A stretch of DNA of 64,000 nt from an archaeon (GCA_018696395.1 JABHQR010000013.1:1802-65801), one strand, 5' to 3'. Shown: positions 33,187-55,954, numbered from the stretch's first letter. Numbers and translations: made by a program. The notes: a model not told the origin generated them from the sequence alone.

Positions 33187-33648
33187 ATGAAAACTAAATA
33201 TGTTATTGGACTTGTGGGCTTAACTGCCTTAGGCGCGGCAGGAATTGCTTATGCAACTCCTAAAGCTAAAAATATGCTTGGGAATTTTAATCAAACTATC
33301 GATTCTGTTGTTCTCGAGCAAGATGTGACTGATTATTTAACTCCAATAGGAGAGAGGTTATCAGTCCTTGAAGATAGTTTTGGTGAATTGTATGATGGAA
33401 TATCATCTAATCAAGATTTAATTGAAGAAAATGCTAATGGTTACATGACAATGTCAGAAAACAATACAATATTAGCAGACAGATTAGACAAGTTAGAACA
33501 ACAAATTAATTCAGAACAAAAAGTTTACTGTACTGATGCTAAAATACCTTTTGTAGAAACTGAATTTCTATTTTGCTACAAAGAAGAAACTGTTGAACAA
33601 CCAGAGTTGGAACCAAAAATAGAGGGACCAGTTGTTAATGAAGAATAA
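33187..33648 (+). CDS. Small secreted protein (signal peptide)
   Basis: 153 aa. N-terminal signal (VIGLVGLTALGAAGIAYA). Confidence 0.5.
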   Translation: MKTKYVIGLVGLTALGAAGIAYATPKAKNMLGNFNQTIDSVVLEQDVTDYLTPIGERLSVLEDSFGELYDGISSNQDLIEENANGYMTMSENNTILADRLDKLEQQINSEQKVYCTDAKIPFVETEFLFCYKEETVEQPELEPKIEGPVVNEE

Positions 33649-33988
33649 AACTATTAAGAAGATTAGAAATTTCAGAACTAAACATTTGACAATTTCTAAT
33701 TTTATTTGTAGTTATGAGTATTACTGCACAAGTTTATACTCTTCAACAATTAAAGAGACTGATAGTGTTATACAAGGGAATGCTTACCTAACCATGTCTT
33801 CGTGATGTGTTGGAAAAAGAGGATGAACTGTCATAAGTCAAACGGGACCGCCCCCTTCCACGCGTGTCTTGGAAGAAGGTCAGGACAGTTTAATCTTCCA
33901 AAAAGTTAGGTAAGTTATTTCTTTAAAAAGTCATCAAAAAAAGAAAGAATGAAAAAAATAAAAACAAAATTAATGGAGGATAAATAAA

Positions 33989-34441
33989 ATGGATTTAGTA
34001 AAATTATTAATTGGTGGAACTGTAGCTACAGGATTAGGAGTAGGAGGATATTTTTTAGGTAACAAAATGGGTTTTGATCAAGGACATGATCAGGGATATG
34101 CTTTAGCTGACCAGATTCCAGTAACAGTAGATGAATGTAAAAATGTTTATACATCTGAAATGGACAAATATAGTTCAATAGAATCTAATAATTTGATTAA
34201 CTCAGATAACAGCAGTTTAAATCTTTATGTTTGTGAAGAACTAGGCTTGAAAGCTTTTGGAATTGAGAATAAAGCAGAAGGGATACAATCTTTGTTAGGA
34301 TATAATACCAGCCCATTTGGAGTTAAACAAATATCTGCAACACAAATTATGCCAGAAACTTTCTGTAATGGTAGTTATGAAAAATTACAGATCATCCCAG
34401 AGATGGTAACTTACGACGCAGTTGCAGAATTGCCTATGTAA
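33989..34441 (+). CDS. Small N-terminally membrane-anchored protein (paralog A)
   Basis: 150 aa. N-terminal TM, then GFDQGHDQGYALA ... ECKNVYTSEMDKY. Confidence 0.5.
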   Translation: MDLVKLLIGGTVATGLGVGGYFLGNKMGFDQGHDQGYALADQIPVTVDECKNVYTSEMDKYSSIESNNLINSDNSSLNLYVCEELGLKAFGIENKAEGIQSLLGYNTSPFGVKQISATQIMPETFCNGSYEKLQIIPEMVTYDAVAELPM

Positions 34442-34491
34442 TTATTTCTTTTTTCTTTTTATTAAATATTTTTAATTGAGAACAAATAAAA

Positions 34492-34992
34492 ATGGATAAA
34501 ATCCCCAAGATATTACTTTGTACAATTAGCCCATTAATAGTTGGAACCGTAGCATACTTTTATCACAATAGCAAGCTAGAAAAAGAATTTGAAAAAGGTT
34601 ATCAAGATGGTTTTAATAGTGGTTATGAGCAAGGTAAAAATGAGGAACCAACACAAAATGAGTGTAATAATTTATATGATCAGCAATTAGAACAATTTTT
34701 AGAAAATTGTAAAGACATACCATTTCAAGACAAATTCAATAATCAATTTACTAATCCAAATGAGTTAGATTTATCGTTAATATGTTCTAAAGATGCAGGA
34801 TTCAAATCATTAGTTTATCAATTTGTTAATGGTGACCAAGGTATGATTTACAGTAGAATAAATTTCTTAGGAGAAAGAGAATACCAGATTGAGAAAGGAA
34901 ACTTATCTCAACTAATTGAAGATCATGAATATAATAGTTTTGGAATAAAACCAATATTAGTGATAAGCAATTATGAAAATAATGAACCTTAA
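34492..34992 (+). CDS. Small N-terminally membrane-anchored protein (paralog B)
   Basis: 166 aa. N-terminal TM, then GYQDGFNSGYEQG ... ECNNLYDQQLEQF, colinear with paralog A. Confidence 0.5.
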   Translation: MDKIPKILLCTISPLIVGTVAYFYHNSKLEKEFEKGYQDGFNSGYEQGKNEEPTQNECNNLYDQQLEQFLENCKDIPFQDKFNNQFTNPNELDLSLICSKDAGFKSLVYQFVNGDQGMIYSRINFLGEREYQIEKGNLSQLIEDHEYNSFGIKPILVISNYENNEP

Positions 34993-35088: not shown

Positions 35089-36468
35089 ATGGAGGACATT
35101 AAAAAAATGGAAGAAGGAGAAGGAATATTGCCAGGAAATGAACCAGGCGCACAAAGTACAAATTATCAAAGTCAAAGTTTAGAACAAACTATTGATCAAA
35201 AAGAGATTTATAATGCAGATGAAGAACTAGACAGATTAGATGAAGAATTACATAAAAAAGGAATCAGTTATGAACGTATTGGAGCTGAACAAAGAGATAG
35301 GGCAAGTGCAACAACTCAACAAGAATATAATCAACCCATTGTTCAAAACCAAGAAGATCTTAATAAAAATGTTCTAAATACTATTTACAATAAAGCTGCC
35401 GAAGAATTAGATGATAAGCAGAAAGAACAACATGAACAATCAATTAAATTTAGACAATTTTTATACACTGCGTTAAGTTATGTTGGAGTAGATATGTATC
35501 AAAAAGATATTGAGAAAAAAGCAGATTTTGCAAAAGAACTTACTGATACACAACTAACTGTTATTAATGAGATAGAAACAAGATACTTTGGAAGAAAAAG
35601 AACAGGAGTCACAGAAAAAGAAGCAGAACGTATGAGGCAAATTGAAAAAAGATACAAAGCAAATGACACATTAGGCCTTAGTCAATTAAAGTCAGCAGGA
35701 GTTGACCCAGAAGGAGGTATTGAAGGTAAAATTAAATATTTAGGAAGAGATATAGAAAAAATAGATCTAAACATAGATACCCAAGAAGGAATTATCTCCC
35801 AATTAGATACAATGATTTCTTCAAATGAAACCACATACCAAAAAATTGTACAAAATGTACAAAATGTTGAAAGTTTAATTGGAACAGAACAAGATGAAAC
35901 TAAAATAAATGAATATCAAAATAAAAAAGGAGAATTTGAACTTAGAGCAATAGTTCTAAATAAAGAAATTGACAACCAAAAAAGAGATAGGGAAGACCTT
36001 AAAGATAGACTTGACGAATTATATGACAAACTAGAAGATAAAGAAAACTTTTTAGAAGATTTAGAAGATGAAAGGTTAGAACTGAAAGAAGTTTGGATGG
36101 ATGAGAAGAGTAACTACCAAGATGTTAGAAGAGCTTACAATTTTCTTCAAAGAAATATTGACAAAATGAATCGTTTCTCTAAAAATAAAGAAATTTTGAA
36201 CATTGCTGATTTGATTAATGAAACTGAAAGTTTCTATAAATTAGGAGAGCTCTTAGGTGAATATCAAAGTTCAAGTAGAACCCTTAATTCAGGAGTAGGA
36301 CGAGATAATAGAGATAGAAATGAAAAAAATAGAAAAACAAGAAGACAGAATACCGAAACACGAATTAAAGAAAAAGAAAAATCTTTAGAGATGGGTCGAA
36401 GAGAGAAAAGATTAAAAAGAAGAAGAAGAAGAAGAAGTGGAAGTGACTTCTTACAACCAACAACATAA
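35089..36468 (+). CDS. Coiled-coil protein with an Arg-rich C-terminal tail
   Basis: 459 aa. Long heptad-like E/K/Q/L-rich segments. The C-terminus is RREKRLKRRRRRRSGSDF. Confidence 0.5.
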   Translation: MEDIKKMEEGEGILPGNEPGAQSTNYQSQSLEQTIDQKEIYNADEELDRLDEELHKKGISYERIGAEQRDRASATTQQEYNQPIVQNQEDLNKNVLNTIYNKAAEELDDKQKEQHEQSIKFRQFLYTALSYVGVDMYQKDIEKKADFAKELTDTQLTVINEIETRYFGRKRTGVTEKEAERMRQIEKRYKANDTLGLSQLKSAGVDPEGGIEGKIKYLGRDIEKIDLNIDTQEGIISQLDTMISSNETTYQKIVQNVQNVESLIGTEQDETKINEYQNKKGEFELRAIVLNKEIDNQKRDREDLKDRLDELYDKLEDKENFLEDLEDERLELKEVWMDEKSNYQDVRRAYNFLQRNIDKMNRFSKNKEILNIADLINETESFYKLGELLGEYQSSSRTLNSGVGRDNRDRNEKNRKTRRQNTETRIKEKEKSLEMGRREKRLKRRRRRRSGSDFLQPTT

Positions 36469-36512
36469 TTTTTATTTTTTTATTTTAAATTAACTAAAAA
36501 AGGTATTTACAA

Positions 36513-38129
36513 ATGGGATTAGAACAAGTTGTTGGCAAGGAAGAGATTTTAAATAATTTCGCTAGAAATAAAAATCAGTTTGAACAGCTCTTGCAATCAA
36601 TAGGGTTAAGAATTGAACATAGCACTAAAAGAGAAACTGTAAGGCCCCTTATTGAAGAATACTGTAAATTGATGATTGGAACATATTATTCTGTTGAAAA
36701 AAAAATTAAGGAGAATGACTTAGTTGGAAATGTACTGGGAAGAGAAGAAATTAATTCTATTTATTCAATGTATATTGCATCAAAATTAATTGATATTAAT
36801 TTAAACAAACGATTAGGTCAGAACGGAAAAAAACAACATATGATTAGTAGGTCATCAAATAAAAGAAGATTAATTAGAACTGGACACCAAGATGAGTATA
36901 GTAATTTTGATTTAGCATTGTCTTCTTTATTTGAACAAGTTAATAGGTCCAGAACCCCAAATTTAAGAGATGTGAGAGAATTTAACAAAGAATATCAAAA
37001 ACAAGCAGCAATATGTTTAAGAAATTTAACAAATGAAGATCAATTTAATTCATTAAGTGACATTAAATGGAATATTGCAGGATACAATGTCACAGGTGTA
37101 GAGATACCAAAAGAAGTGAGTTTAGTTCAAAGTAATTCTGTCAAAAAAGCTCAACATAAAGAAACAGAGATGTTTGAAACTCCTTTAGAATACATGCACA
37201 TAGATAAGAAAAAAGTCATGGCAAAAGAAAAAATAATAGGAGATCAGAAAGTTATTGATGAATTAGAAAAAAGTGTAAGACAATTAATGACTTATAATAT
37301 AAATCACCAGACTAATTTATTCAAAGATTTGGGGATATTTAATAACAAACATTTACTTCAAGGGCTTCCTGGGACTGGAAAAACTAGAGTAGCTTTTTAT
37401 TTGATAGATTATGCTGAAAAACTAAATGCAAGGTATGGAGGCAATTTAATGGTTTCAGCATTAAATATCAACTCTTCTTGGAAAGATGGAGACATACAAA
37501 AATTACAAAGCCAGTTTAATCAGATATGTTCTGAAAATAAAACTTTCTTTATATTTGAAGATGAAATTGATGCACTTTTGAAAGAAGGTCCACAAGATAA
37601 AGAAGATCGAGGACAGGTTAGAATAAAGAAAGAGTTCAATAAATTCCTAGAAGGAGCTTATCCAGATAGAGGAAATTACTTATTTTTAACAACATTAAAC
37701 AGATTAGAAAACTTGACAAGAGATAATAGAGAAAGATTTGATTGTCATAATTGGAGAGGGGCAGTAACTTCTGAAGAGAAAGCGCTTTTAATTAAATATA
37801 AATTAGAAGAAGGCTATTCTGGAAATATTAATATTTCACAAAAAGATTTAGGATTGTTAGGTGATTTAGCTTATAGGTCTGATTTAGGGGGAAGAGATAT
37901 AGCTAAAATATGTGTTGGAATAAAACAAGAGTCATTTAATGATTCAGAAGAAATATTTGACATGTTAAAGAAAAATGAATCTTCAATCGAATCTCAAAGA
38001 AAAATTATCACATCAAACTTGCAAGAAGTTAATTACAATTCATTAAAATCTAAATTTGAAGCATATCTAGAAAATAGAGAAAATATTCTACAAGATTCTA
38101 CCCAATATTCTGGAGGAAATAATGGTTAA
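36513..38129 (+). CDS. AAA+ ATPase (classical clade) with a unique ~280 aa N-terminal domain
   Basis: 538 aa. Walker A GLPGTGKT, Walker B FFIFEDEIDAL, sensor-1-like LFLTTLN, Arg-finger-like RDNRERFD. Confidence 0.75.
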   Translation: MGLEQVVGKEEILNNFARNKNQFEQLLQSIGLRIEHSTKRETVRPLIEEYCKLMIGTYYSVEKKIKENDLVGNVLGREEINSIYSMYIASKLIDINLNKRLGQNGKKQHMISRSSNKRRLIRTGHQDEYSNFDLALSSLFEQVNRSRTPNLRDVREFNKEYQKQAAICLRNLTNEDQFNSLSDIKWNIAGYNVTGVEIPKEVSLVQSNSVKKAQHKETEMFETPLEYMHIDKKKVMAKEKIIGDQKVIDELEKSVRQLMTYNINHQTNLFKDLGIFNNKHLLQGLPGTGKTRVAFYLIDYAEKLNARYGGNLMVSALNINSSWKDGDIQKLQSQFNQICSENKTFFIFEDEIDALLKEGPQDKEDRGQVRIKKEFNKFLEGAYPDRGNYLFLTTLNRLENLTRDNRERFDCHNWRGAVTSEEKALLIKYKLEEGYSGNINISQKDLGLLGDLAYRSDLGGRDIAKICVGIKQESFNDSEEIFDMLKKNESSIESQRKIITSNLQEVNYNSLKSKFEAYLENRENILQDSTQYSGGNNG

Positions 38130-39624
38130 GAATATTTTTGGAGAAGAAGATTCTCAATTTAGATCTGAAGGAACAAGGAAATTATTTAGGACATATCACA
38201 GGTATTTTTTAGATGAAGATAAACAGAGAGATAAAAGTCCTAACAGTAGCAATAGTAATAGTAGTTATAATAATGACAATAATGATGATAATGTAGAATT
38301 TATTGAAAAAAATCAAGAGAATGATCAAAAGAATAATGAACAAAATGGTCTTGAAGATAATTTATCAATTGAAACAACAGTAAGAAAAAAGAGAAAAAAA
38401 TTTATTAGGCCACAAGCGTTGGAGATTGAAGTTGAACAAACCAATGAATTACATACACCAACTGAATTTGAAGAAGTACCAACAGGAACATATCAATTTG
38501 GCGAGAATATTTTTAATGAGATATTAGATTATTACAAAGCTAACATTATTGGTGGAATTAAAAGTACCCCTATCCTAGAGGAAGATAGTAACTGTTTATT
38601 ATCCACTATATGTGCTTCTTCAAGAAATTCTTTTATTGTAGAAGGAGAATCTAGGACTGGAAAATCTTTGATTGTGGATAAATTAACACCCCTTTTAACA
38701 TCAGTATATTATTTAAGAAATTGTTCAAATAAATCAATGTTTGGTAATTCTGAACAGATTAATAAAAATGATTTTCTTTACATAACAGAATTTCAATCAG
38801 CAATTGAAGGAAACCCAGCTGTAAAAGAAGCATTGAAATTAATTACAGAAGATAAAGATGCTAGTAATGATGGGTATGGGGAAAGAGTTACATTAAATGG
38901 GGATATTACAGTAATGAGTACTGGTGCGGATGAAAATATTAAAACTCAAAGAAGAGATGTTGAACTTTCTGGCAGATTCATCATTCTAAAAACCAGGGCT
39001 GACGCAGAAAAAATTAAAGCAATATGTGATTATCAAGATGGTTTATTAGATGGAAGTATTGAAGGTGTTAACTTCAGTAAAGATAGATTAAGAAAACTTA
39101 AAAAACATATTGTAGATACCATCAATTTAAAAGATGTAAATTTTGAAAATCCTTTTGTAAGTTCTTATTCACAACATTTACCTAACACTAAAAAATCGGT
39201 TTATTATAGGACATTATATTATTCATTAGTTAATGCATTTACCAAGATAGATAGACATAATAGGGTTTGGAAAGGAGAAGATAAGTTAATCACTAATATC
39301 CAAGATATTTATATCACACACCAACTATATCATCAAAATTATTGTAATATTCTAAAAAACTTGTCATTGCAATCATATTCATCAATGGAAAAAAGTCTTA
39401 CTACTTTGGAAAAAGATGTTAAAAAACAAGAGATGGAAAATGAGATTAAACTTATTGACAATTTAATTTCAAAACCAGTTGATTGGGAACAAGTATGGGA
39501 TTCAGGTTATAAAATTATGAAAGAAAGGAACTTTGATTTGGCAGAACAATGGAAAATAAACCAAAGCCTAGGAGATAGTGTATTAGTTTACGACCCCATA
39601 ATAAAACAACAGATAGGAATTTAG
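38122..39624 (+). CDS. P-loop NTPase of unknown family
   Basis: 500 aa. Walker A GESRTGKS, candidate Walker B FLYITEF, and a low-complexity N-terminus (SNSNSS, NNDNNDDN). The start overlaps the upstream AAA+ gene by 8 nt. Confidence 0.55.
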   Translation: MVKNIFGEEDSQFRSEGTRKLFRTYHRYFLDEDKQRDKSPNSSNSNSSYNNDNNDDNVEFIEKNQENDQKNNEQNGLEDNLSIETTVRKKRKKFIRPQALEIEVEQTNELHTPTEFEEVPTGTYQFGENIFNEILDYYKANIIGGIKSTPILEEDSNCLLSTICASSRNSFIVEGESRTGKSLIVDKLTPLLTSVYYLRNCSNKSMFGNSEQINKNDFLYITEFQSAIEGNPAVKEALKLITEDKDASNDGYGERVTLNGDITVMSTGADENIKTQRRDVELSGRFIILKTRADAEKIKAICDYQDGLLDGSIEGVNFSKDRLRKLKKHIVDTINLKDVNFENPFVSSYSQHLPNTKKSVYYRTLYYSLVNAFTKIDRHNRVWKGEDKLITNIQDIYITHQLYHQNYCNILKNLSLQSYSSMEKSLTTLEKDVKKQEMENEIKLIDNLISKPVDWEQVWDSGYKIMKERNFDLAEQWKINQSLGDSVLVYDPIIKQQIGI

Positions 39625-39655
39625 ATCAAGTAATCATTGAATTTATCAAAAATGA

Positions 39656-41377
39656 TTGGAGGCAAGAAAAATGAGATATAAAAATACTTACGATGAACTT
39701 ATGTCAATCTATTCAGATAGATTAGATGATAATATCAGGTTCGTATTAGAACCAGGTATGTTTAAAACATCAAATCAAATTGAAACAATTACTGAGCAAT
39801 TATATTCACAAAAAGATAATGTTGAAAAATTAAGAAAAAAGGATTATAATCAATTGTCTATTGATGAGCTAATCAAAGTTAGTATTCAAATGGTATCATT
39901 AGAAGACACTTGCCAAAATCTTCAACAACAACACAGGTCTATACCAGAAAGAGATAATTATGAACTTCTTGCCACTAAAATTTTAGACATAAGCCAAAGA
40001 ATTGATGATGGTTTCATTAACATAGCAAACGAATTAAAAGATGATTTTGAAGTTAGATATAGTTCACTAAAAAATTTGAGGCCAGGAGATATTGAACAGG
40101 CTGGAGAATTAAGGTCAGAATTAAATCACCTAATCTCAAAAGTAGATTACTTTGAAGAGATATTTGACCAAAGAAAAATTGATCAATCAGTGATGAATGA
40201 AATTAAAAGTAATTTTAATAATTATATGCAAGAAAGTAAGGAGATTAATTCAATTACACAAAATTTTAATAATATTGTTGAAACTTATCAATCATTATCA
40301 ACATCCCACGAGATTAGAAAATTCATTAGATCAAATTTAAGAAATTTTGAAAATAGAATTATTAAAGGAAAATTACTCAAAGATTGTGAATCTGCAAATT
40401 ATCATGAAATGATTCCTAAAATTGAATTTTTAAAAGAAGAGTTTAATTCTATGTTAGAAAATTCTGAAGATTCAATTAATCTTAGAAATGAAATGAGATC
40501 ATACTTGGAAGGATTAGAAACAATTTCAGATTATGTTGATAGTATGGGCAGTGAAGATAAAATTGTTAAAACTAAAGATAAAGTTATATTAAATAGAATT
40601 ATCAATAATATCAACCCAGATAGATTTTCTCAAGAAAAAGGATCAATTTATTTAGATTCTTTAGTTTCTCAAGTTAGTTCCACAGCTTCAGAAATAATGA
40701 ACAAAGTAAAACAATTATATCAACAAGATTTTGATTTTGAGATTTCCAGATATAATTTAGGAATTAAAGGGAGATTATTGGAAAAAATAACTCTCTCGGA
40801 TTCAGAAGAAAATATTTGTTCCATGATAGATAATTATAATCTACTTAATCAGGAAGTAACTTTGTTCTTAAACAATCAATATAATGGTAAAATTGAACAA
40901 GTTAAATATTTACAAAAATGTCAAGATAAAATTAAAAATCATTTGGCAAAAACTTCAGAATTAAGTAATGATAATTTAAAAATTAAATTTGAAAGTCTAA
41001 ACAGTTTAATTGAAATTTATTCTAAAAGAGCATTTTTTGACATCACTGGTAATCAAACAAGGGATTATGAGACATCTAACACCCCATCAAATGGAAATAA
41101 AAATAATGGTATAGAAAACAACAATAGTACTAATATTAATTCCAAAAATGAATTAATTAGTTTTGCTTACCAAGCGCACCAAGATTGTCAATCTGAAGAA
41201 TTGAAACAAATTTGTGCAGACATAAGTTGTATTGACAGGAATGGATATCTTAAACCGTTATACAAGCGAGCTGGAAAGATTAAAGATCAATTGTCTGAGA
41301 TTAAAATTGAAGATTTACAAGATTATGAAAGATTGACTTACCGATCAATTGAAACTGCAATGGGCAGTTTGTTTTGA
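39656..41377 (+). CDS. Large coiled-coil protein (hypothetical)
   Basis: 573 aa, predominantly helical with heptad-like repeats. Confidence 0.5.
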   Translation: MEARKMRYKNTYDELMSIYSDRLDDNIRFVLEPGMFKTSNQIETITEQLYSQKDNVEKLRKKDYNQLSIDELIKVSIQMVSLEDTCQNLQQQHRSIPERDNYELLATKILDISQRIDDGFINIANELKDDFEVRYSSLKNLRPGDIEQAGELRSELNHLISKVDYFEEIFDQRKIDQSVMNEIKSNFNNYMQESKEINSITQNFNNIVETYQSLSTSHEIRKFIRSNLRNFENRIIKGKLLKDCESANYHEMIPKIEFLKEEFNSMLENSEDSINLRNEMRSYLEGLETISDYVDSMGSEDKIVKTKDKVILNRIINNINPDRFSQEKGSIYLDSLVSQVSSTASEIMNKVKQLYQQDFDFEISRYNLGIKGRLLEKITLSDSEENICSMIDNYNLLNQEVTLFLNNQYNGKIEQVKYLQKCQDKIKNHLAKTSELSNDNLKIKFESLNSLIEIYSKRAFFDITGNQTRDYETSNTPSNGNKNNGIENNNSTNINSKNELISFAYQAHQDCQSEELKQICADISCIDRNGYLKPLYKRAGKIKDQLSEIKIEDLQDYERLTYRSIETAMGSLF

Positions 41378-41392
41378 AATAATTATTTTTTA

Positions 41393-42769
41393 TTATTCTA
41401 TTGTAAAATTTAAAGTATTTGACCTTCCGATTACCTCCCCAGAAAATCTGTTATAACATTGAACTGCCATTTCAAATTCTGAAATATCTATGCCTGACAA
41501 TAAATCAAAAATTAAAACATGATCAAAAGGATTAAAATATTGTATTTTATTTGAATTTAGTGTTAAACTTTCAATTGAATTAACATAAGATGCAACAACA
41601 TCACAATTACCATTAGAATAACCAGAATTATTAATTAAATGACAAAAATTTTTGTGTCCAGAATGAATTATTGGATCAATAGAGTTATCAAGACAAGATA
41701 ATTCAAAATTTTCATTATGTTTTTTTCTTTCAAATTCAAATTTGTACCAAGTACTGGTTCCTGAATCTTCAAGAATAGCATTTGAATTTGAGTTAATTAA
41801 TAAACTCAAATTAGAATCAATTAAAATAGGGGATTCCCTCCCAACACTAGTTACAGATTCCCCTCTTTCTTCTGCTTCAGCCATCCTTTGTTGACTTGTT
41901 TGAGAATGTGAAAAATGAGGCAAAGTTAATGCACCATTATTTTCAAAACTGCCCATGGTTCCATTTTGATATTCCCCACCATAATTATGTTCTCTTAAAC
42001 TTTCTTGAAGTTCAGTTAAACTAGTCATAAGAGGATTGTCAATAGGTAAACTTATATCTTGAGAACCTTGCTCCAAGTTATGTAAATAAATTTCATCAGA
42101 ATTTTCATTAGCATTAGTTAAAAAACCAAGTAATTCTTCAGGACTAACTCTTTCCACTAAAGGAGTTACATCTTGTTCAATATTATTTTGATTAGCATCA
42201 TTTAAACTAGGTGTTGTTGAAACTCTTCTAGAATGTGGTTTTTTATCAGCATAACTAAATTCTTGTTCAGAAAAACCTAATTCTTCAACTTGAGAAACTG
42301 GATAGTTAACAAAATAATGACTATAATTATCGCCAGACTTAATTTCAGTAATTGAACCATGTAAAGATGACATAACAACCCAACCTGAACCATATGAATT
42401 GTTATCAGAACTACAAAATAGATTAAAATTCAAGTTATAATTTTCGCCTAACGTAGCGTTAAGTCTTGTTATATCTAATTTATTTCCTGGTAAAGAAAGA
42501 TTATCTAAAGATACAACATTACCATCTTTTACTACAACATATTTCAAATTACATCGCTGCCAATTAGTTAACATGTTAACAGGACCTAACCAACAGAAAT
42601 CACCATCATCTAAAGGCACATTTTTATTACACGCAATTTTACCATCAAAATAATAAAATGATTGTGTTCTTTTTTGTTCTTTTTGTTTTTCAAGTTCAGA
42701 AAGTTTTGATCCTTCTTCGTTTGCCTTATTTATATCTTCTTCACCCATTATACTTACTACAAGTTCCAA
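41393..42769 (-). CDS. Hypothetical protein (first gene of the convergent minus-strand array)
   Basis: 458 aa with no recognisable catalytic motif. Confidence 0.5.
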   Translation of the reverse strand: MELVVSIMGEEDINKANEEGSKLSELEKQKEQKRTQSFYYFDGKIACNKNVPLDDGDFCWLGPVNMLTNWQRCNLKYVVVKDGNVVSLDNLSLPGNKLDITRLNATLGENYNLNFNLFCSSDNNSYGSGWVVMSSLHGSITEIKSGDNYSHYFVNYPVSQVEELGFSEQEFSYADKKPHSRRVSTTPSLNDANQNNIEQDVTPLVERVSPEELLGFLTNANENSDEIYLHNLEQGSQDISLPIDNPLMTSLTELQESLREHNYGGEYQNGTMGSFENNGALTLPHFSHSQTSQQRMAEAEERGESVTSVGRESPILIDSNLSLLINSNSNAILEDSGTSTWYKFEFERKKHNENFELSCLDNSIDPIIHSGHKNFCHLINNSGYSNGNCDVVASYVNSIESLTLNSNKIQYFNPFDHVLIFDLLSGIDISEFEMAVQCYNRFSGEVIGRSNTLNFTIE

Positions 42770-46429: not shown

Positions 46430-46440
46430 TTTATTATTTT
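46345..46440. repeat. Direct repeat copy B, covering the 5' coding end and upstream region of 46106-46429
   Basis: tgatttcacttaattcgtcaagagtactacgtaattctttacaatagtttactaattccgatgacttaattgttttttttgacattttattatttt. It differs from copy A by a 2 nt swap and a 1 nt indel. Confidence 0.75.
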
Positions 46441-46442
46441 AA

Positions 46443-48626: not shown

Positions 48627-50203
48627 CTAAAAGACACATCATAAGAGCCAATTCTGTGATTAGCTGGAAAAATAAATTGGACATGTTTTGAATTATTTTC
48701 TTTTAATAAACTAGCTTGATAATCATTAAAATAATCAACATAATTGTCTGGAATTTTATTAAGATCTAAACTTAAAATTTGACCTTTATCAACCATTCGC
48801 TCATTTAAAAGAAATTTTGCTTCTTCAGTTATGGCCCTACCTCTTCGATTGATTCCTTTCTTAGCATTATTGAAAAAATCGTACAGGTCCCCTTGAGAAG
48901 CTATTGAATTGGTTGTATAAGCTTTTTGAAATAGGTCAGTAAAATTAATATTGATATAAAAATTACGATAAGTAAAATGTAACACATTCTTAGTAGTTTT
49001 AAAATTTTTAATTGAGCTCTCACGATAACTGGATTTGTTGAAAGGAAAGTCGTCCAAATCATTCAATGTAACTCCCAAATAATCTTTCATAGAAATTAAC
49101 TGAATTTTTTTATGAAATTCTAAATTAATTGAATTTTCATTTTGATTAATTTTATAACATTTCAGAATACCTTTACTTAAACCAAGGATAGCATAATAAT
49201 CATCATAATGTTTAACTAATTTAACCGAACCGATATCTGAAGAAGGAACCAATAATTCATCATTGTTAAAAAAAGGAGAGATCATTTTTCCCTCATTGTT
49301 TTTTTCACCAGGGCCATGATAATATTTTCTAACTTCATTACCTTCCCCCTCTTTACCTATGTATATCCCTAAATTATTATCTGTATACAAGATTAAATCT
49401 CCCAAAACATCTAAATTTAAAATTTTACGATTTTGTTTACCGTTAGATATTCTTTTAACCTCATTAATTTCATTAGTTAAAGGATCAAAATCTAAAATTC
49501 TTAATATGTTTTGATTTGGAACATAAAGATTCAATTTTTTGATATTTGGATTTTTAAAATCTACAACATTTCTAGCAATTACTGGCCCAGATATTTCAAT
49601 AGGTCCATTATGATCTTTCAATAAAACTAATTTTTCTAAATCACCACTAGGACAATTAAACAAATAACCACAAGGTAATTTTACTTGGTCATCTTCAGAA
49701 GAGACAATCCTTCTAGGCAAGTATGCCCCTAGAATAAAATGGTGCTTTATTGAATTATGATTATTTTGTTCTTTTTCATAGGTTAAGTAATCTGAAGTGG
49801 AAAAGGAAACATTATCTTCACCTAAAATAGACCTCATACCTTTTAGACTATCGCTACCATCAATAAAATAATTTTGAGCTTCAATAAAACTTTTTTGTTC
49901 ATCATTAAAATCAAACCTAAAGAATCCCCTCCTACTAAAAGAATAAATTGAATTCCTTGAAATAATTAATTCCCTTGGGGAAGGTAATTCAATTTCCCGA
50001 CCTTCACTATCTAGATATTTTAAAGGTAAAAATATTGGACTAATTTCATTGAAATTAGATTCCCTACTAATTATTTGTAACCCAACACCTTCACGTTTCT
50101 TAACTGTAGAACCTACTTTTTTAGTTGATGCAACGAATGCGATATAATCTTCCAATCCATTACTAAATTCAAATCCCTTCTTCTTAAATTCTTGTTTCGC
50201 CAT
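48614..50203 (-). CDS. Hypothetical protein
   Basis: 529 aa. Overlaps the upstream PP2C-like gene by 13 nt (operon-like). Confidence 0.5.
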   Translation of the reverse strand: MAKQEFKKKGFEFSNGLEDYIAFVASTKKVGSTVKKREGVGLQIISRESNFNEISPIFLPLKYLDSEGREIELPSPRELIISRNSIYSFSRRGFFRFDFNDEQKSFIEAQNYFIDGSDSLKGMRSILGEDNVSFSTSDYLTYEKEQNNHNSIKHHFILGAYLPRRIVSSEDDQVKLPCGYLFNCPSGDLEKLVLLKDHNGPIEISGPVIARNVVDFKNPNIKKLNLYVPNQNILRILDFDPLTNEINEVKRISNGKQNRKILNLDVLGDLILYTDNNLGIYIGKEGEGNEVRKYYHGPGEKNNEGKMISPFFNNDELLVPSSDIGSVKLVKHYDDYYAILGLSKGILKCYKINQNENSINLEFHKKIQLISMKDYLGVTLNDLDDFPFNKSSYRESSIKNFKTTKNVLHFTYRNFYININFTDLFQKAYTTNSIASQGDLYDFFNNAKKGINRRGRAITEEAKFLLNERMVDKGQILSLDLNKIPDNYVDYFNDYQASLLKENNSKHVQFIFPANHRIGSYDVSFRCVK

Positions 50204-51703: not shown

Positions 51704-53398
51704 TTATTTTTTATTACGCCTCAGATATATCATCAAATCTGTAATTTCACTAGCATTATTACCACAACTGGCTATTTTTTCAGTTAACTGATTTATTTTA
51801 GTACCATAACTTTCACTTTCTTTTTCAGATAAATGTAATTTATCTTTTATTCCTATAATATGATCAATTGTACTTTGATAATTTAAATTATCAATAGAAT
51901 CTATTACTTCAGGATTAGCACCACCATCTTTGAAACTAAATTTACTTTTACGAGTATTCAAATGGTAATTATTATCTTCAGCGATACCCAAAACTAAATT
52001 ACTTAATTTAACAAGTTTTTCTTTTTCTTCAGTTAGCTGAGACTGATAAGTTTTAATACTTGCATCTGTTTTTCCCTTATTTCGAATATACCTATCTTTT
52101 TTAGTGGTGTGTTCAGATTCTTTGGTTTTGAATGTATTTTTCCTTACTTCTAACCAATTAGAAACAGAATCAATAGTACTATGAAGATAAGATTTCATTC
52201 TTTCTTTTTCTTCAAGCGAAATTGTTTCATCACCTTTTTTCCACCCAATTAGATTTTTATAATCAGTATCGATTAATTTTTTAACATCGTTTTCTAAATC
52301 ATTATGATTATAATCGGGGGTTTCGTCTAATTTTTTATTTAATTCAGTACACTTAATTCTTACTTCATCAATTGGACGAAATATATTTTCAATTATACCT
52401 CCTTCCTTATTATTAACCCAACTAACTTGATGATACTTTTTCACAATTTTTTCTTGTAAAGCAAATCTTAATTGTTTAGCAGAAGGAATGTTTCGATTAC
52501 TTCTAGATGCAACCCCAGTAAATTGATCTCCCCCTGGGCCAAATTCAAGACCAAGTCTATCTTGCAAAAACTCACCATACCTGCCCATACTTGCTAAACC
52601 ATAAGCATCTTCTTTTTTCTCAAGGAACATAAAGACCATAATTGCAGAATCAATATCAGTTGCAAAATAATCAGTGATGATTTTTTTACTAGAGTTATCC
52701 CAATCAGATAAAGGAGATAATGAAAAAGGTTTACGTAAAGGATCTTCAGAAAGACTATATTTACTACTAGAAAGTTCTTTTGATTTAGGATATTTATTAC
52801 TCCCTCCTGGGATTGGATCAGCCATTAATACTTGTTTTTCAAATAAGTCTAAATCTAGATTTTTCTGAACTAATGAATCATTAATATCAAAACCCAATAG
52901 AATATTATCTAATTTTAGATCATTGTGAGTATGACCTTTCTCATGTAATTCTTCCAACCTTAAGAATAAGAAGTACATTGTTTTATCAATTAAATAATCT
53001 TTTGTCCGATTATCAAATTCAGCAGGATTATTTTGTTGAAGTGAATCAAAATTTTTAATTAAATCATATAAACTGGTACCCCCATATTCCATCAACATGC
53101 CGGGTGTTGTCCCATTTTCCCTTTTGATTTTATTTTGAAACCCTAATACTTTAACAAAACCAGGCATGTTATAAGGGTTATTTTCATTAGATAAAAATTC
53201 TGATTTTTCTTTAAACTCTTTTTTAATATCATCTTCTTCTTTATTTAAAAATTTTAATGCATACCTCATGCCAGGGTTAGATTCGCAAGTTGCATTGTAT
53301 ACCAATCCAACACTACCATCTCCAATTGTTTTTAAACCTAACATTAATTCTAAATCTTCACCTTGATTTGTTGTAAATTTAACTGTTTCTGTAGTCAT
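51704..53398 (-). CDS. Eukaryotic-like protein kinase-domain protein (soluble; possibly atypical or pseudokinase)
   Basis: 564 aa. Gly-rich loop IGDGSVGLVY, Lys motif YALKFL, catalytic loop HTHNDLKLDNILL. No clear DFG (the region reads NLDLDLFEK). Confidence 0.6.
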   Translation of the reverse strand: MTTETVKFTTNQGEDLELMLGLKTIGDGSVGLVYNATCESNPGMRYALKFLNKEEDDIKKEFKEKSEFLSNENNPYNMPGFVKVLGFQNKIKRENGTTPGMLMEYGGTSLYDLIKNFDSLQQNNPAEFDNRTKDYLIDKTMYFLFLRLEELHEKGHTHNDLKLDNILLGFDINDSLVQKNLDLDLFEKQVLMADPIPGGSNKYPKSKELSSSKYSLSEDPLRKPFSLSPLSDWDNSSKKIITDYFATDIDSAIMVFMFLEKKEDAYGLASMGRYGEFLQDRLGLEFGPGGDQFTGVASRSNRNIPSAKQLRFALQEKIVKKYHQVSWVNNKEGGIIENIFRPIDEVRIKCTELNKKLDETPDYNHNDLENDVKKLIDTDYKNLIGWKKGDETISLEEKERMKSYLHSTIDSVSNWLEVRKNTFKTKESEHTTKKDRYIRNKGKTDASIKTYQSQLTEEKEKLVKLSNLVLGIAEDNNYHLNTRKSKFSFKDGGANPEVIDSIDNLNYQSTIDHIIGIKDKLHLSEKESESYGTKINQLTEKIASCGNNASEITDLMIYLRRNKK

Positions 53399-53399
53399 T

Positions 53400-54332
53400 T
53401 TATTTTTCCCCCATTAAATAAATTGAATTTATTTTTTCATCACGATTGTAACTTAAAGAGCTTTCTAACTCAAAAATTTTATTTTTACCTAAAACGTACT
53501 TACTCAAACTTCCTTCTGTTAAAACAATTAATTCTTGTTCATTTTTTGAAAAGTAGAACCCCATAATCGGCGAACTAAAAGATTTAACCCTACTATTAAC
53601 ACCAGAAGCAATATCAAGTGAAAAGAGATTACTTGACACTGAATAAACTAATTTTGAGTTTTCTAGTAACTGAAGATTATTTGTAATCAACCTATTATCA
53701 GAGCATTCATTTGACAAAGTACTGACACAACCAATTTTGTTAGAATTATTTTTCAAATTTAATTTAATTATTCCGCCAAAATTATTTCCTAAATAAACAT
53801 TGGATTCATCACAACACATTGAAGTAATGTGTCCTTTATTAAGCTTAAATTTAGATCCTTCTGAAATTAGATCCCCTAAATTATCTGAGAAAAATAAATT
53901 CCCCCTTTCATAAGTAAATATCTTTTTACTATTACAACCCAATCCCATTGGATTTAAGAAACCATCACAATATTTAATGATAAAAAAATCTTTTTTTCCT
54001 GAATCAACTTCAATCTTGTCTGTGTTGCCATTAATGTAAAAATCACTTAATGGAACTTTTAATACACCAACAAAACTATGGGAAGCCAACAAATAATTTT
54101 CATCATTAGTAGAATTGTTAAAAAGTATGATATCATTAAATTTTGATTGACTCCATTTTCCAAAATTAAGTGAAATATTTTCTAATTCAACCTTTTTAAT
54201 TTGACCAGATTCTAAATTCAATAAATCAACACCATAACTGTGACCTAAACCCAAATGAGGTACACCTAAAATGTGTAAAGGTTTAATTGATTGATAATTT
54301 TTACTGGTCCTTACTAAATCTTTTAGTTTCAT
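53400..54332 (-). CDS. Hypothetical protein (beta-rich, possibly propeller-like)
   Basis: 310 aa. It is separated from the upstream kinase gene by 1 nt. Confidence 0.45.
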   Translation of the reverse strand: MKLKDLVRTSKNYQSIKPLHILGVPHLGLGHSYGVDLLNLESGQIKKVELENISLNFGKWSQSKFNDIILFNNSTNDENYLLASHSFVGVLKVPLSDFYINGNTDKIEVDSGKKDFFIIKYCDGFLNPMGLGCNSKKIFTYERGNLFFSDNLGDLISEGSKFKLNKGHITSMCCDESNVYLGNNFGGIIKLNLKNNSNKIGCVSTLSNECSDNRLITNNLQLLENSKLVYSVSSNLFSLDIASGVNSRVKSFSSPIMGFYFSKNEQELIVLTEGSLSKYVLGKNKIFELESSLSYNRDEKINSIYLMGEK

Positions 54333-54349
54333 ATTTTTTATTTTATTTT

Positions 54350-55954
54350 CTAGCGTTTTACTATTTTAATCGTCCCATTTTGAGAAAGATAAATATTACC
54401 TTCAAATCCAATATTATTTGAATTGTCAGGAACTGAAAGTTGAGGAGATTCCAAACTAATACCAAAATGTTTCTTTACTAATGAATCTTCAGATTCTTTT
54501 TCTATTGGATCTTTTTTATCGTAGATAAGGATATTATTTAATTTTTCAATGTCATCCATAAGTGCAAAATAACTTGATTTCTGGTTTCTATTTAAGTAAT
54601 TAAGAAACCCTTCTGGATTCACAAACTGATTTCTAAACCGATGTAATCCATTAAGAAATAAACCTTTTCCACCCCTCCCATTAATTTCTTGAAAATAGCA
54701 ATTGTTTAATGGATTATAATCCATAGATGGATAAATTTCTAAAGGTTTATCTTTTGATGAGATAGAACTAACCAACAATTGAACACCGTTCTTATTTATT
54801 GCAGCATTAACTAATTTTCGATTAGATTGATTTCTAAAAAAATATCCTTCTAAAAGAGGAGTTAATTTACCAATGACTTTTCCAAAATTTGTTCTATTAA
54901 AAACTTTTTGAAAAGGTTGTTCATAACCTTTTTGAGGAATAATCATAGGCAATATAAAGTCTTTATCATGAATCCCAGCAACACCTAATAATTTAATTCC
55001 ACCTTGATTATCTGATCTTGACAGCACCCCATTATAAAGTTCATTAGTAGATTCATTTAGCCGGTCTAAATCATAATTTGTTAATCCAACTAATCTGTCG
55101 GTCATATCATTACATACCGAACTAATAATATTTAACATTATTGAAGGTTCATTAGCAGCAACAATATAAACTGGCAAACTTTTTTTATTCAGACTTAACC
55201 CCATAACTGCATTTTTAATTAGTTCTGCCCTCTCTAAAAAGATGGGAATATTAAAGGGAACAAGCTCATATATCCTATGACCCCTAGGGTTATTTTTAGA
55301 GCCATGATTAAAATTACTTGCTAAAGTATCCATTGTATCTATTGCAAATTTCAAATTACGAACATAAACATCACGTTCAATACAGATCTTACCATTTAAA
55401 TTACAATTATCAGAATAAGATTTGTAAAATTCATTTAAGAGATTATTAGTATAATTTGTTTCATCGTTGTTATCAATTAAATTATTTGCAAGTTTATTAA
55501 CCAAACCATCTAAATAATCTTCACCTTGAACAAATTTTCTAATATCATTAAAAATACTTTCAGGAACATGGGGGCCAGTAGCATCAAAAATCACATCACA
55601 AGATGAGAAAAAATCTTTAAAATCATTTAACCCTGTACCTTTATTTTTATTTTTATCATTGTCACAATAACTAATCTTTGGGCCTAATTGATTAACATTA
55701 AAACCAAATTTTCTGAATTCAACTTCACATATTTTCTTGAAATTACCTAAATCAGAATACCCATAATTATAAAAAATTATTTCTTCATAATTACTTGAAA
55801 ACATATCACGCATATCTGAAAGGTCGTAATTAACAATAGGGTTCCCATAATTATCTAAAATTGCAGCACTCGCTTTATCTTGACTAGAAATCTTATTCAA
55901 CAATAGTTTGACAAGGTTTCCCTTACCAATTATCCCTAAGGTTTTTTTACTCAT
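54350..55954 (-). CDS. Hypothetical protein (first gene of the minus-strand island array)
   Basis: 534 aa. N-terminal GIIGKGN glycine-rich segment, no firm family assignment. Confidence 0.45.
   Translation of the reverse strand: MSKKTLGIIGKGNLVKLLLNKISSQDKASAAILDNYGNPIVNYDLSDMRDMFSSNYEEIIFYNYGYSDLGNFKKICEVEFRKFGFNVNQLGPKISYCDNDKNKNKGTGLNDFKDFFSSCDVIFDATGPHVPESIFNDIRKFVQGEDYLDGLVNKLANNLIDNNDETNYTNNLLNEFYKSYSDNCNLNGKICIERDVYVRNLKFAIDTMDTLASNFNHGSKNNPRGHRIYELVPFNIPIFLERAELIKNAVMGLSLNKKSLPVYIVAANEPSIMLNIISSVCNDMTDRLVGLTNYDLDRLNESTNELYNGVLSRSDNQGGIKLLGVAGIHDKDFILPMIIPQKGYEQPFQKVFNRTNFGKVIGKLTPLLEGYFFRNQSNRKLVNAAINKNGVQLLVSSISSKDKPLEIYPSMDYNPLNNCYFQEINGRGGKGLFLNGLHRFRNQFVNPEGFLNYLNRNQKSSYFALMDDIEKLNNILIYDKKDPIEKESEDSLVKKHFGISLESPQLSVPDNSNNIGFEGNIYLSQNGTIKIVKR

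Follow-up and report, generated by a model that had tools for sequence, protein, structure and literature searches.

The locus examined here raises the question of what a compact block of genes without recognisable housekeeping homology does for the archaeon that carries it. The block lies in a 64,000-nucleotide stretch of DNA, here called the window. We conclude that this block, 25 kb long and from a tiny marine DPANN archaeon, is a Woesearchaeota/Nanoarchaeota gene cluster not described before, which is passed on vertically and evolves fast. It combines Ser/Thr kinases and a phosphatase with at least two AAA+ ATPases, a TrmB regulator and coiled-coil proteins.

A sequence-only reading had already outlined the block, and its ORF coordinates, strands and spacing agreed with ours when recomputed. 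A plus-strand unit occupies 35089-41377 and contains an 8-nt overlap (38122/38129), and the ten genes of a minus-strand array run from 55954 to 41393, separated by 1-30 nt or slightly overlapping; the tight spacing and gene order fit two operons. The parts that it had named were all found: two Hanks-type kinases, a PP2C–coiled-coil fusion, a classic AAA, a second P-loop ATPase, Cys-rich ectodomains, small paralogs at the left edge and a divergent TrmB gene at the right edge. Its description of the first 33 kb as housekeeping stood in part only, as 21-33 kb holds Ig-like surface proteins and proteins without assignment. The right boundary has to be moved to 58240, because 57002-58240 encodes a paralog of the PP2C tail. 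The genes are as follows.

33187-33648, plus strand: small protein, 153 aa, 2 Cys, N-terminal membrane anchor or signal (hydrophobic segment, residues 5-24)
33989-34992, plus strand (starts at 33989 and 34492): two small N-anchored, Cys-containing paralogs, 150 and 166 aa, family F9 (TM segment)
35089-36468, plus strand: coiled-coil protein cc, 459 aa, first core gene (80% identity in L016)
36513-38129, plus strand: classic-clade AAA ATPase, 538 aa (PF00004, 5e-12)
38122-39624, plus strand: P-loop ATPase, 500 aa, the cluster's anchor gene (invariant Walker A, AAA+ fold)
39656-41377, plus strand: Y, mostly helical, fast-evolving, 573 aa, last core gene (family F2)
41393-42769, minus strand: 458-aa protein, 8 Cys, last array gene (no family match)
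42799-44802, minus strand: receptor-type Hanks Ser/Thr kinase (Pkinase, 1.6e-8; HFDLNPGN and DFG motifs)
44832-46097, minus strand: 421-aa protein with coiled coil, TM helix (119-137) and Cys-rich ectodomain (Cys pattern)
46106-46429, minus strand: 107-aa fragment, duplicate of the 5' end of 44832-46097 (first 23 residues identical)
46443-48626, minus strand: PP2C phosphatase fused to a coiled coil (NCBIfam Stp1, 5e-11)
48614-50203, minus strand: 529-aa protein, family F13, kept in the arrays of L007 and L008
50234-51676, minus strand: helical protein, 480 aa, weak TPR-like signal (TPR_2, 1.3e-3, below cutoff)
51704-53398, minus strand: soluble kinase-like protein, 564 aa, helical C-terminal half (Pkinase, 9e-10)
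53400-54332, minus strand: 310-aa protein, ortholog at the same position in L013 with 46% identity (no family match)
54350-55954, minus strand: first array gene, 534 aa, divergent from TrmB (LDH-like motifs)
56219-56980, plus strand: TrmB-family transcription regulator (PF01978, 3.5e-18)
57002-58240, minus strand: 412-aa coiled-coil paralog of the PP2C tail, outside the original finding (BLASTP 5e-10 and 7e-9, specific common motifs)

Two ATPases lie in the plus-strand core. The classic AAA protein consists of a helical N-region (residues 1-240) of no assigned class and an AAA domain with intact motifs, whose closest families, VAT, CdvC/Vps4 and Rpt2, are approximately tied at ~3e-8. Across 12 orthologs, Walker A, Walker B and the sensor-1 Asn are invariant and an aromatic pore loop (SSW/YxDG) is conserved. 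The N-domain is the part that would point to a substrate class; its predicted structure reached a pLDDT of only 33.5, too low for a usable model, and no sign of a second, degenerate AAA domain was seen in the N-region. The 500-aa anchor ATPase founds a new AAA+ family within the MCM/MoxR/ChlI clade. Its predicted model has an MCM/RavA/BchI-like fold, with MCM as the best structural match and RavA/MoxR and BchI scoring close, and with residues 1-120 disordered; the family has an invariant Walker A Lys, catalytic Glu, sensor-1 Asn and Arg finger. It differs from the MoxR/RavA and BchI/ChlI chaperones in having no significant AAA_5 or Mg_chelatase match and no vWA partner in the window, and it can be aligned with the cluster's own MoxR-like paralog, found in other loci, at the P-loop only. 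The ATPases lie between two further core proteins. The first, cc, is homologous to the upstream family F3 of other loci (hhalign probability 82%, E 1e-5) and ends in the window in a poly-Arg tail of net charge +13, which is variable and not conserved across the family. Family F2, to which Y belongs, occupies the same position in 13 loci, and the Y orthologs of L010 and L011 carry a transglutaminase-like Cys/His/Asp insert.

The minus-strand array contains the kinases and the phosphatase. The receptor kinase has a cytoplasmic kinase domain, a TM helix (511-529) and a C-terminal six-Cys ectodomain, and orthologs in L007, L008, L019 and L029; the ectodomain motif CGSE..W.xYxC..GxC..C.E.TYCCP is common to it and the L007 ortholog. 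The 421-aa TM protein has a six-Cys module weakly similar to this ectodomain (E 0.028; YEC..CCP pattern in both), and the region contains a 99-nt direct repeat with 97% identity (46012-46109 versus 46344-46442). The phosphatase protein comprises PP2C (residues 1-310), a coiled coil of ~400 aa and an acidic tail; its Pfam PP2C_2 match (4e-5) falls slightly under the gathering cutoff, all four Asp motifs (ADG, GDS, TDG, DDT) are present, and it is orthologous to the PP2C–coiled-coil proteins of L007 and L008 (hhalign E 5e-17). Catalytic motifs are intact in both the TM kinase and PP2C. The soluble kinase retains a G-loop, the catalytic Lys (YALK) and HNDLKLDN, with ADP where DFG is expected. Among the other products, 48614-50203 has no Pfam or PDB match, and 41393-42769 has no clear ortholog in L007 or L008; in L029, a TPR protein comes next after the kinase. 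The first array gene, 54350-55954, had been counted among the large proteins without motifs, a description that fails here: it is probably a very divergent LDH/MDH-type Rossmann protein, with GIIGKGN, AANEPS, YDLDR and GIHDK motifs in LDH order and spacing. It aligns with family F8 (hhalign E 0.0025), which matches L-LDH (5e-10) and occupies the same TrmB-adjacent slot in L003, L010, L019 and L023. Because a PDB search with the protein's own profile returned no match, we infer this assignment rather than count it as observed.

Is the combination more than a chance juxtaposition? A gene-neighbourhood check confirmed that it is: the cluster is syntenic in ~20 related lineages, where the ATPase pair, the flanking helical proteins and TrmB occur together. 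A classic AAA gene is found in every locus, adjacent to the new AAA+ gene in all those examined, even where anchor identity is only ~20-25%, and the positions of cc, Y and TrmB are conserved. TrmB is the cluster's most conserved partner (HMM E-values of 1e-81 to 1e-96 in distant loci) and adjoins the core in L003, L009, L010, L011, L020, L022, L023, L025, L027, L029 and L031. We also noted that its length and architecture are TrmBL2-like. In 8 of the 11 lineages with that side visible, the core has a Hanks-type kinase no more than 10 kb away; there is none in the visible flank of L003, L025 or L031, implying that the phospho-control layer could be an add-on. The window, L007, L008 and L010 have a PP2C. 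Six loci (L003, L005, L011, L012, L023 and L027) carry two inserted genes, one MoxR-like (ChlI, 9e-4; AAA_5 with AAA_lid_2) and one vWA, the latter with MIDAS and HExxH intact, and L003-type loci bring together classic AAA, MoxR-like, vWA, helical Y, JAB and ThiF/E1 genes. At the edges, F9 clusters with same-position genes of L007 and L008 and is restricted to the sub-clade that these form with the window; 33187-33648 has no family match and counts as a member by position only; and the 57002-58240 paralog is absent from the syntenic L013. Overall, the family is small and sparse (5 of 185,579 GTDB species in a pattern scan; 292 clusters overall).

The block is conserved in place and divergent in sequence. 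In a close relative, gene order and chromosomal neighbours (permease, RtcA, aS21, EF-1 beta) are kept, and identity is 84-95% in the flanks, 71-80% in the ATPase unit and 26-48% in Y and the array. In L016, Y has 43-47% identity, versus 71-80% for the ATPases, and in L013 the TPR-like protein has only 26% and the soluble kinase 42%. The proposal that the block is an accessory island was checked by composition, and GC, GC3 (0.166 versus 0.175) and tetranucleotide usage (r = 0.965-0.986) did not distinguish it from its flanks. Neither a tRNA, an integrase or a PHROG match nor a viral, phage or plasmid relative was found in the block. The unchanged chromosomal position and flank-like composition argue for vertical inheritance, unlike typical defence islands.

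We tentatively read the block, the local version of the cluster, as a machine that remodels proteins at the expense of ATP and is regulated by transcription and phosphorylation, its functional links being drawn by guilt by association. The classic AAA, with its intact Walker motifs and aromatic pore loop, would form a hexamer that threads or unfolds protein substrates, and its partner would be a second ring ATPase, from the new MCM/MoxR-clade AAA+ family; some lineages may add a vWA/HExxH co-chaperone and a MoxR-like ATPase to the two. These ATPases would assemble, remodel or release a scaffold whose coiled-coil and helical building blocks come from the cluster itself, namely cc, Y, the 421-aa TM protein, the PP2C tail and the paralog of that tail. 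The receptor kinase may sense an extracellular cue through its six-Cys ectodomain, a module in common with the neighbouring TM protein, and together with the soluble kinase and the scaffold-tethered PP2C would set the phosphorylation state of the complex and hence its activity, with expression under TrmB control. Two points count against this reading: neither the basic cc tail nor the small membrane proteins are family-wide, and three lineages have no kinase in the visible flank.

The closest competitor, which we consider possible and clearly less probable, is a system dedicated to immunity or conflict and analogous, in an archaeon, to the bacterial ternary systems; in it, the ATPases would act as thresholding chaperones that free an effector upon infection, regulated by the kinases and PP2C (JAB and E1 in L003). 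The MoxR–vWA–classical-AAA ternary systems are the nearest described concept: they combine MoxR, a divergent vWA protein, a classical AAA, JAB/E1 and system-specific alpha-helical proteins (Kaur et al., 2020, eLife, PMC7159879). This component set is comparable to that of the cluster, above all in the L003-type loci. Both have a classical-clade AAA, MoxR-clade AAA+ ATPase(s) and system-specific alpha-helical proteins, a vWA protein (here in the six loci with the insertion), a reversible protein-modification layer (JAB and E1 in L003, kinases and PP2C in the window) and quickly diversifying accessory parts. The transglutaminase-like domain on Y, the fast divergence of the non-ATPase components and the sparseness of the family also fit. 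However, the cluster fails the tests of membership in the ternary (MoxR-vWA-FtsH) systems: those belong to multicellular bacteria and this cluster to DPANN archaea, no MoxR-vWA pair occurs in the window, and the universal second ATPase here is a separate, new MCM-like family. The classic AAA has one AAA domain and an unrelated N-region, without trace of a degenerate second domain, instead of two FtsH-type domains. No caspase, whether EAD-tagged or not, and no EAD-type or other effector, toxin or nuclease was recognised in the window, and PADLOC returned generic kinase and AAA matches but no system. The cluster, moreover, has a constant TrmB partner and a fixed, syntenic chromosomal position with flank-like composition, and the population is clonal across samples. 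Indeed, no described system fits in PADLOC, PHROGs, NCBIfam or the literature, as the sequence-only reading had supposed.

Two further alternatives we regard as unlikely, to the same degree. One is a DNA-transaction machine for replication, segregation or chromatin organisation. In it, the MCM-like AAA+, which may carry a winged helix at its C-terminus, would work as a ring translocase or a helicase together with coiled-coil proteins and an AAA of the segregase type; cell-cycle control would come from the kinases and PP2C, and TrmB would be the partner that binds DNA. A DNA-directed role for the anchor ATPase is possible, given that MCM is its best structural match and that some distant members have weak wHTH-like matches (FUR, Mnd1-HTH) C-terminal to the ATPase. 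A weak match to a Methanothermobacter plasmid protein domain, the poly-Arg tail of the window's cc and the tight linkage to a TrmB-family DNA-binding protein of TrmBL2-like length and architecture point the same way. Yet the anchor ATPase has only ~10-15% identity to the MCM replicative helicase and no Pfam MCM match; it lacks the N-terminal OB/Zn domain, because residues 1-120 are disordered; the helix-2 insert hairpin between beta2 and beta3 is not evident in the model; and RavA/MoxR and BchI score nearly as high. Its gene context is unrelated to replication, the basic tail is not conserved, replication and segregation machinery normally evolves slowly, unlike Y and the array, and the membrane-anchored kinase and Cys-rich ectodomains suggest the envelope.

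The other is that functionally independent units are merely syntenic: the ATPase core, a regulator-enzyme pair of TrmB and the LDH-like protein, and a kinase/PP2C envelope-signalling operon comparable to PknB/PstP or Stk1/Stp1. TrmB-family regulators typically control neighbouring metabolic genes, and the LDH-like F8 adjoins TrmB in several loci; the core occurs without a visible kinase in three loci, and the kinase array of the window, L007 and L008 has the opposite orientation to the core. The best NCBIfam matches are PknB_PASTA_kin for the kinase and Stp1 for the phosphatase. The bacterial pairs, which regulate envelope growth and division through coiled-coil proteins, resemble the array further: in both, the receptor kinase crosses the membrane once and has its sensor domain outside the cell, the same operon encodes a PP2C, and the likely substrates are coiled-coil proteins. 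Here, however, the extracellular part is a novel six-Cys module instead of PASTA, PP2C and its coiled coil are fused, there is an extra soluble kinase with a degenerate DFG, the host is an archaeon, and the array is tied to AAA+ ATPases rather than peptidoglycan genes. The same gene combination recurs in lineages with anchor identity of only 20-50%, at which conserved gene order is otherwise unexpected in these genomes without selection; TrmB adjoins Y even without the LDH-like gene (L009, L020, L025); and paralogs of the PP2C tail lie on either side of TrmB. Among archaea, the Sulfolobus Arn network (ArnA FHA, ArnB vWA, ArnC/D kinases and phosphatases), which controls a cell-surface structure, is likewise a Ser/Thr phospho-signalling module with a vWA link, but the cluster has no FHA domain or archaellum genes, and its ATPase core and TrmB lack Arn counterparts. 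Finally, the accessory island first proposed, gained by horizontal transfer, or else an integrated mobile element or a provirus, which the missing housekeeping homology, the local gene duplication and the 99-nt repeat would suit, is largely refuted by the composition, the lack of mobile or viral marks and the kept position described above, and we give it very little credence.

What the favoured remodelling machine would mean for these organisms depends on how the divergence is read. Quick divergence could reflect mere weak constraint on lineage-specific proteins; that of the array relative to its flanks is also consistent with conflict or host interaction. Because the non-ATPase parts diverge several-fold faster than the flanks, and because the cluster-bearing organisms are presumed to be episymbionts, the likeliest arena would be the cell envelope, where it touches a host cell or is in conflict with viruses. 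Overall, the best reading is that the cluster would serve as a lineage-specific, phosphorylation-controlled remodelling machine at the cell envelope, for interaction with hosts or viruses.

Comparison of homologous loci reveals an undescribed cluster, conserved by lineage in Woesearchaeota and Nanoarchaeota, that brings together several ATPases, a TrmB regulator and Ser/Thr-phospho genes around a new AAA+ family, with a function that we infer. The open reading frames predicted in the earlier sequence-only reading were reproduced in their coordinates, strands and spacing, and the cluster has the following features.

33187-34992: three small genes
35089-41377, plus strand: unit of four genes (coiled-coil protein, 35089-36468; classic AAA ATPase, 36513-38129; MCM-like AAA+ protein, 38122-39624; Y, 39656-41377), in which two gaps measure 44 and 31 nt and one pair of genes overlaps by 8 nt
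55954-41393, minus strand: convergent ten-gene array, the genes 1-30 nt apart or slightly overlapping
42799-44802, in the array: Hanks-type kinase with one TM helix (residues 511-529) and a C-terminal six-Cys ectodomain (HFDLNPGN, DFG; Pkinase above cutoff)
46443-48626, in the array: PP2C phosphatase with a ~400-aa coiled coil (four Asp motifs, profile match)
51704-53398, in the array: kinase (G-loop, catalytic Lys in YALK, HNDLKLDN; ADP replaces DFG)
56219-56980, plus strand: divergent TrmB (PF01978, 3.5e-18)
57002-58240, minus strand: coiled-coil paralog of the PP2C tail, 412 aa, between TrmB and an amino-acid permease

TrmB had been taken as the right edge of the block. That border moves, because the 57002-58240 protein beyond it, outside the block as first drawn, is genuinely paralogous to the tail of the PP2C protein; TrmB thus lies within the block. 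The paralog has no counterpart at the same site in L013, a close relative whose synteny with the window extends across the right border.

The window is an archaeal chromosome segment, with a GC content of ~28% and genes for eRF1, geranylgeranyl reductase, fused PyrB-PyrI and TrmB; no tRNA or Rfam match was found within it. PyrB and PyrI, the catalytic and the regulatory chain of aspartate carbamoyltransferase, share one 494-aa ORF (12416-13900, plus strand). Three large surface-type proteins with Big_9, He_PIG, cadherin-like, PKD and DUF4625 domains are encoded at 21346-30292 (minus strand), and the sole compositional outlier of the window is its 22-33 kb segment (GC 0.32-0.355; tetranucleotide r of 0.89-0.92 to the rest). 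Next to them, 30360-32777 (minus strand) encodes two acidic proteins of 420 and 376 aa without family matches, the former with a Gly-rich, alternating beta-strand-like C-terminal end. L007 and L008 have genes of comparable size and style at this position, and one paralog in L008 sits within the kinase array.

To define the cluster, neighbourhoods of homologs (designated L with a number) were fetched from metagenomes and MAGs, and their proteins were clustered with iterated HMMs. About 20 distinct lineages share a common plan. The plan runs: small proteins, coiled-coil protein, classic AAA, (MoxR-like AAA_5 ATPase plus partner), MCM-like AAA+, helical Y, (SAM methyltransferase), TrmB, a large protein, kinase and further genes. 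The coiled-coil protein of the window belongs to the same family as those of the other loci (hhalign probability 82%). The MCM-like family is invariably paired with the classic AAA ATPase and the conserved TrmB regulator. In the window, L007 and L008, TrmB and the array together run in reverse orientation relative to the core, which is why the array converges on Y. Of the 11 lineages in which that side of the core is visible, eight have a Hanks kinase no more than 10 kb away from it (the window, L007, L008, L010, L013, L019, L027 and L029), and PP2C was found in the window, L007, L008 and L010. The link between the cluster, eukaryote-type kinases and PP2C is a recurrent one; both kinds of enzyme are rare in such reduced genomes. 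Scans of GTDB and of metagenomes undercount carriers, because they use short peptide patterns, and the wide alignment A3 was too divergent to give patterns for the metagenome scan.

The homologs carry the labels 'archaeon', 'Candidatus Woesearchaeota' or 'Nanoarchaeota'. The MAG contigs L009 and L011 (GTDB records CAZPXC010000061 and CAZFSZ010000031) are titled 'uncultured Methanosarcinales archaeon', possibly through mis-binning or mislabelling; all other named carriers are Woesearchaeota or Nanoarchaeota. Upstream of the cluster, L031 (41-4412) encodes a LysM/SLT protein, a chemoreceptor-like protein with MCP-signal and HAMP domains, and a PD-(D/E)XK protein.

The MoxR-like ATPase is present only in L003, L005, L011, L012, L023 and L027, where an optional partner (family F6) joins the ChlI/AAA_5-like gene. 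This partner has an invariant DxSxS MIDAS motif, and two members weakly match VWA_2 (1.6e-4 and 3e-3); sub-threshold profile matches and motifs make a vWA domain the probable assignment for its fast-evolving members. The partner (L003 8413-10008 and orthologs, alignment A9) also has an invariant N-terminal HExxH, which suggests a fused zinc-metallopeptidase-like domain. Downstream of TrmB, L003 (15438-21458) encodes an LDH-like protein and a 404-aa protein of no known family, followed by a Prok-JAB protein (614 aa) and a ThiF/E1-like protein (472 aa); this segment may be a ubiquitin-like modification module in the place where the window has kinases and PP2C. Two Y orthologs (L010 11061-13304 and L011 8484-11219) contain an inserted transglutaminase-like, papain-fold domain (Transglut_core, 1.3e-10) with GDCEDG, GGHSWP and LD motifs.

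At the centre of the cluster is the 500-aa product of 38122-39624, which matched nothing in Pfam, NCBIfam, PADLOC, PHROG or PDB sequences. A word-indexed search returned only 20 clusters, and an exhaustive profile search 292 among 1.84 billion representatives. The family alignment contains GxSR[ST]GKS, a Walker-B-like hhhxE-x-Q, STGADEN and SGRF. PDB sequence-profile searches with the family were empty, and it was a fold search that identified it: the AF2 model has high confidence (pLDDT >90) for residues 125-500 and contains an MCM-type AAA+ ATPase domain, and residues 1-120 are disordered and of low complexity. Judged by this model, the protein defines a new AAA+ family of 292 sequence clusters with a predicted MCM/MoxR-like fold. 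Neither the N-terminal OB fold nor the Zn motif of MCM was found in it, and membership of the MCM family proper has no Pfam, NCBIfam or PDB sequence match. A BFVD fold search gave only generic AAA+/SF3 matches. We also considered whether the P-loop protein is paralogous to the MoxR-like ATPase of the cluster, and rejected this when hhalign matched the P-loop only.

Its neighbour, 36513-38129 (538 aa), is a classic-clade AAA protein with a single PF00004 domain (residues 281-412; 5e-12, above cutoff). In an alignment of 12 orthologs, Walker A (G-x-x-G-x-G-K), Walker B (D-E) and sensor-1 N396 are invariant, and the pore loop keeps its aromatic residue in 'SS[WY]xDG'; an Arg, replaced by Lys in two members, precedes F409. 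The protein thus has the features of a PF00004 unfoldase: Walker A and B, sensor-1, second region of homology and aromatic pore loop. Because these ATPase residues are invariant and the pore loop is conserved, it is most likely an active substrate-threading ATPase, by the established AAA mechanism. VAT, CdvC/Vps4 and Rpt2 are equally distant from it, the CdvC, CDC48 and PAN models score equally and all far below cutoff (CdvC, 33.9 bits against 650), and FtsH is not among its best PDB matches. A homolog search with this protein was dominated by generic AAA sequences and yielded one ortholog. A degenerate N-terminal AAA domain was without support, as profiles of the N-region and the AAA half show no similarity (hhalign E 0.2); an AF2 model of the N-region, built from a two-sequence alignment, had a pLDDT of 33.5. 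A Vps4/ESCRT-like reading of the AAA and coiled-coil pair was likewise rejected, neither protein having a Pfam match to MIT or Snf7.

The array supplies the phospho-signalling genes. The two kinases, the PP2C fused to a coiled coil and the Cys-rich ectodomains predicted from sequence are upheld by Pkinase and Stp1 matches, motifs and the TM helix at 511-529. Both kinases are of Hanks type: of the catalytic features of that class (HxD..N, DFG and, in the N-lobe, G-loop and VAIK Lys), 42799-44802 shows HxD..N and DFG, and 51704-53398 all but DFG. The PP2C protein has all the metal-binding Asp motifs (ADG45, GDS122, TDG195 and DDT299), a domain-level match to NCBIfam Stp1 (5e-11) and a Pfam PP2C_2 score of 23.6 bits, just under the 24.0 cutoff. 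The ectodomain of the receptor kinase has no match to PASTA repeats or to any other family; its motif, CGSE..W.xYxC..GxC..C.E.TYCCP, recurs in the L007 ortholog, and the adjacent gene (44832-46097) encodes an ectodomain with a similar Cys pattern. Since the receptor kinase has this Cys-rich ectodomain in common with the TM protein next to it, the system may be gated by a signal from outside the cell. The array also contains a local duplication, marked by a 99-nt direct repeat of 97% identity (46012-46109 and 46344-46442): a 107-aa gene (46106-46429) arose recently from the 5' end of the 421-aa TM protein gene 44832-46097.

TrmB has an N-terminal TrmB wHTH above the PF01978 cutoff, with NCBIfam TrmB and TrmBL1 matches at domain level, and is the best-conserved neighbour of the cluster (HMM E-values of 1e-81 to 1e-96 in distant loci). 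In L003, L010, L019 and L023, the large protein next to it (family F8) is LDH/MDH-like (L-LDH match, 5e-10). In the window this position is taken by 54350-55954, which contains the LDH motif series (GxGxxG, NPVD-like, LDxxR and catalytic His), correctly ordered and spaced, and has a weak profile match to F8 (hhalign E 0.0025). Its own profile matches neither Pfam nor the PDB. Position, motifs and the sub-threshold match together make it a probable divergent relative. PDB profile searches with Y, F6 and the 529-aa family of 48614-50203 were uninformative.

The components differ sharply in rate. In L013, the flanking genes share 84-95% identity with the window (TrmB 84, permease 86, RtcA 85, aS21 95, EF-1 beta 90), and the first array genes are 48, 46, 42 and 26% identical. 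Compared with L016, the coiled-coil protein, AAA and MCM-like protein are 80, 75 and 71% identical, and Y only 43-47%, implying moderately conserved motors with rapidly diverging partners. Within the population, contigs from two unrelated metagenomes (L001 and L002; JGI 3300003492 and ENA ERZ4200961) match window positions 26513-48129 (21.6 kb) with 99.995-100% identity, and the AAA protein appears in the index of 38 sample blocks, implying a widespread, essentially clonal population. With contigs this similar, within-population diversity was set aside as a signal of selection.

Several features, taken together, suggest a regulated assembly or remodelling machine: a threading AAA is consistently paired with a ring AAA+ from the chaperone/helicase clade, a MoxR-vWA co-chaperone pair is an optional addition, private coiled-coil and helical proteins abound, and there are genes of reversible modification (kinases and PP2C, or JAB and E1 in L003).

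The alternative that this is a true immune system draws on the nearest described concept, the bacterial MoxR-vWA-FtsH ternary conflict systems (Kaur et al. 2020, PMC7159879). By analogy, we hypothesize that the cluster works like them. The window has no MoxR-clade (AAA_5-type) AAA+, no vWA domain and no Ubl-conjugation gene (JAB, E1, E2-Ubl or RING; JAB and ThiF/E1 occur only in L003), and no EAD-tagged effector or caspase was detected in it or in related loci. The third component of the ternary system has an active FtsH-type AAA domain preceded by an inactive one; in the window protein one PF00004 domain was found, and no evidence of a double FtsH-type arrangement. As the window lacks the MoxR-vWA pair, the Ubl genes and the effector, we do not file the cluster as a ternary system. 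Nor is it a known anti-phage defence system: PADLOC-DB v2 gave only generic matches to a kinase (PD-T4-6, mad6) and an AAA (IetA, 4.6e-5), with no partner genes. No prior description was found in the literature, in keeping with the earlier claim that this gene set is not a described system. In kind, the cluster resembles NTPase-chaperone systems with a regulatory modification layer, with a substantial chance that it is something more distinct.

A DNA-transaction machine centred on the MCM-like translocase would fit the MCM-type ATPase domain; the missing MCM N-terminal elements speak against it, and a basic tail on the coiled-coil protein, considered as a DNA-binding clue, proved not to be conserved. 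Independent but syntenic operons would fit the inverted array; the recurrence of the same combination across distant lineages speaks against them. A mobile element, finally, is largely refuted, and with it the 'accessory island' of the sequence-only reading: the composition check that it proposed shows a block like its flanks (tetranucleotide r 0.965-0.986; GC3 0.166 versus 0.175), with no integrase or tRNA, no viral-contig, phage or plasmid relatives, no PHROG matches, and synteny with relatives in about 20 lineages. On sequence comparison, then, the observation that these genes belong together stands, and the island framing is wrong.

Extending the assembly or remodelling machine further, we tentatively propose, as a possibility with the odds against it, a new class of archaeal multi-AAA+ machine, comprising a classic AAA unfoldase, an MCM/MoxR-clade ring ATPase, private coiled-coil scaffolds and a dedicated TrmB, that is controlled by a receptor Ser/Thr kinase and PP2C and mediates contact-dependent interaction of DPANN archaea with hosts or viruses. 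If true, this would be a lineage-defining symbiosis or conflict apparatus without described counterpart.

DPANN archaea have tiny genomes, yet this lineage spends about 25 kb on a cluster of almost wholly unannotated, fast-evolving proteins, which suggests that it matters for their lifestyle. If the machine works where these cells meet their hosts, or in defence against viruses, it would provide a molecular handle on the cell interactions of uncultured Woesearchaeota, and would extend to archaea the logic of bacterial conflict systems, that of an NTPase chaperone plus reversible modification.
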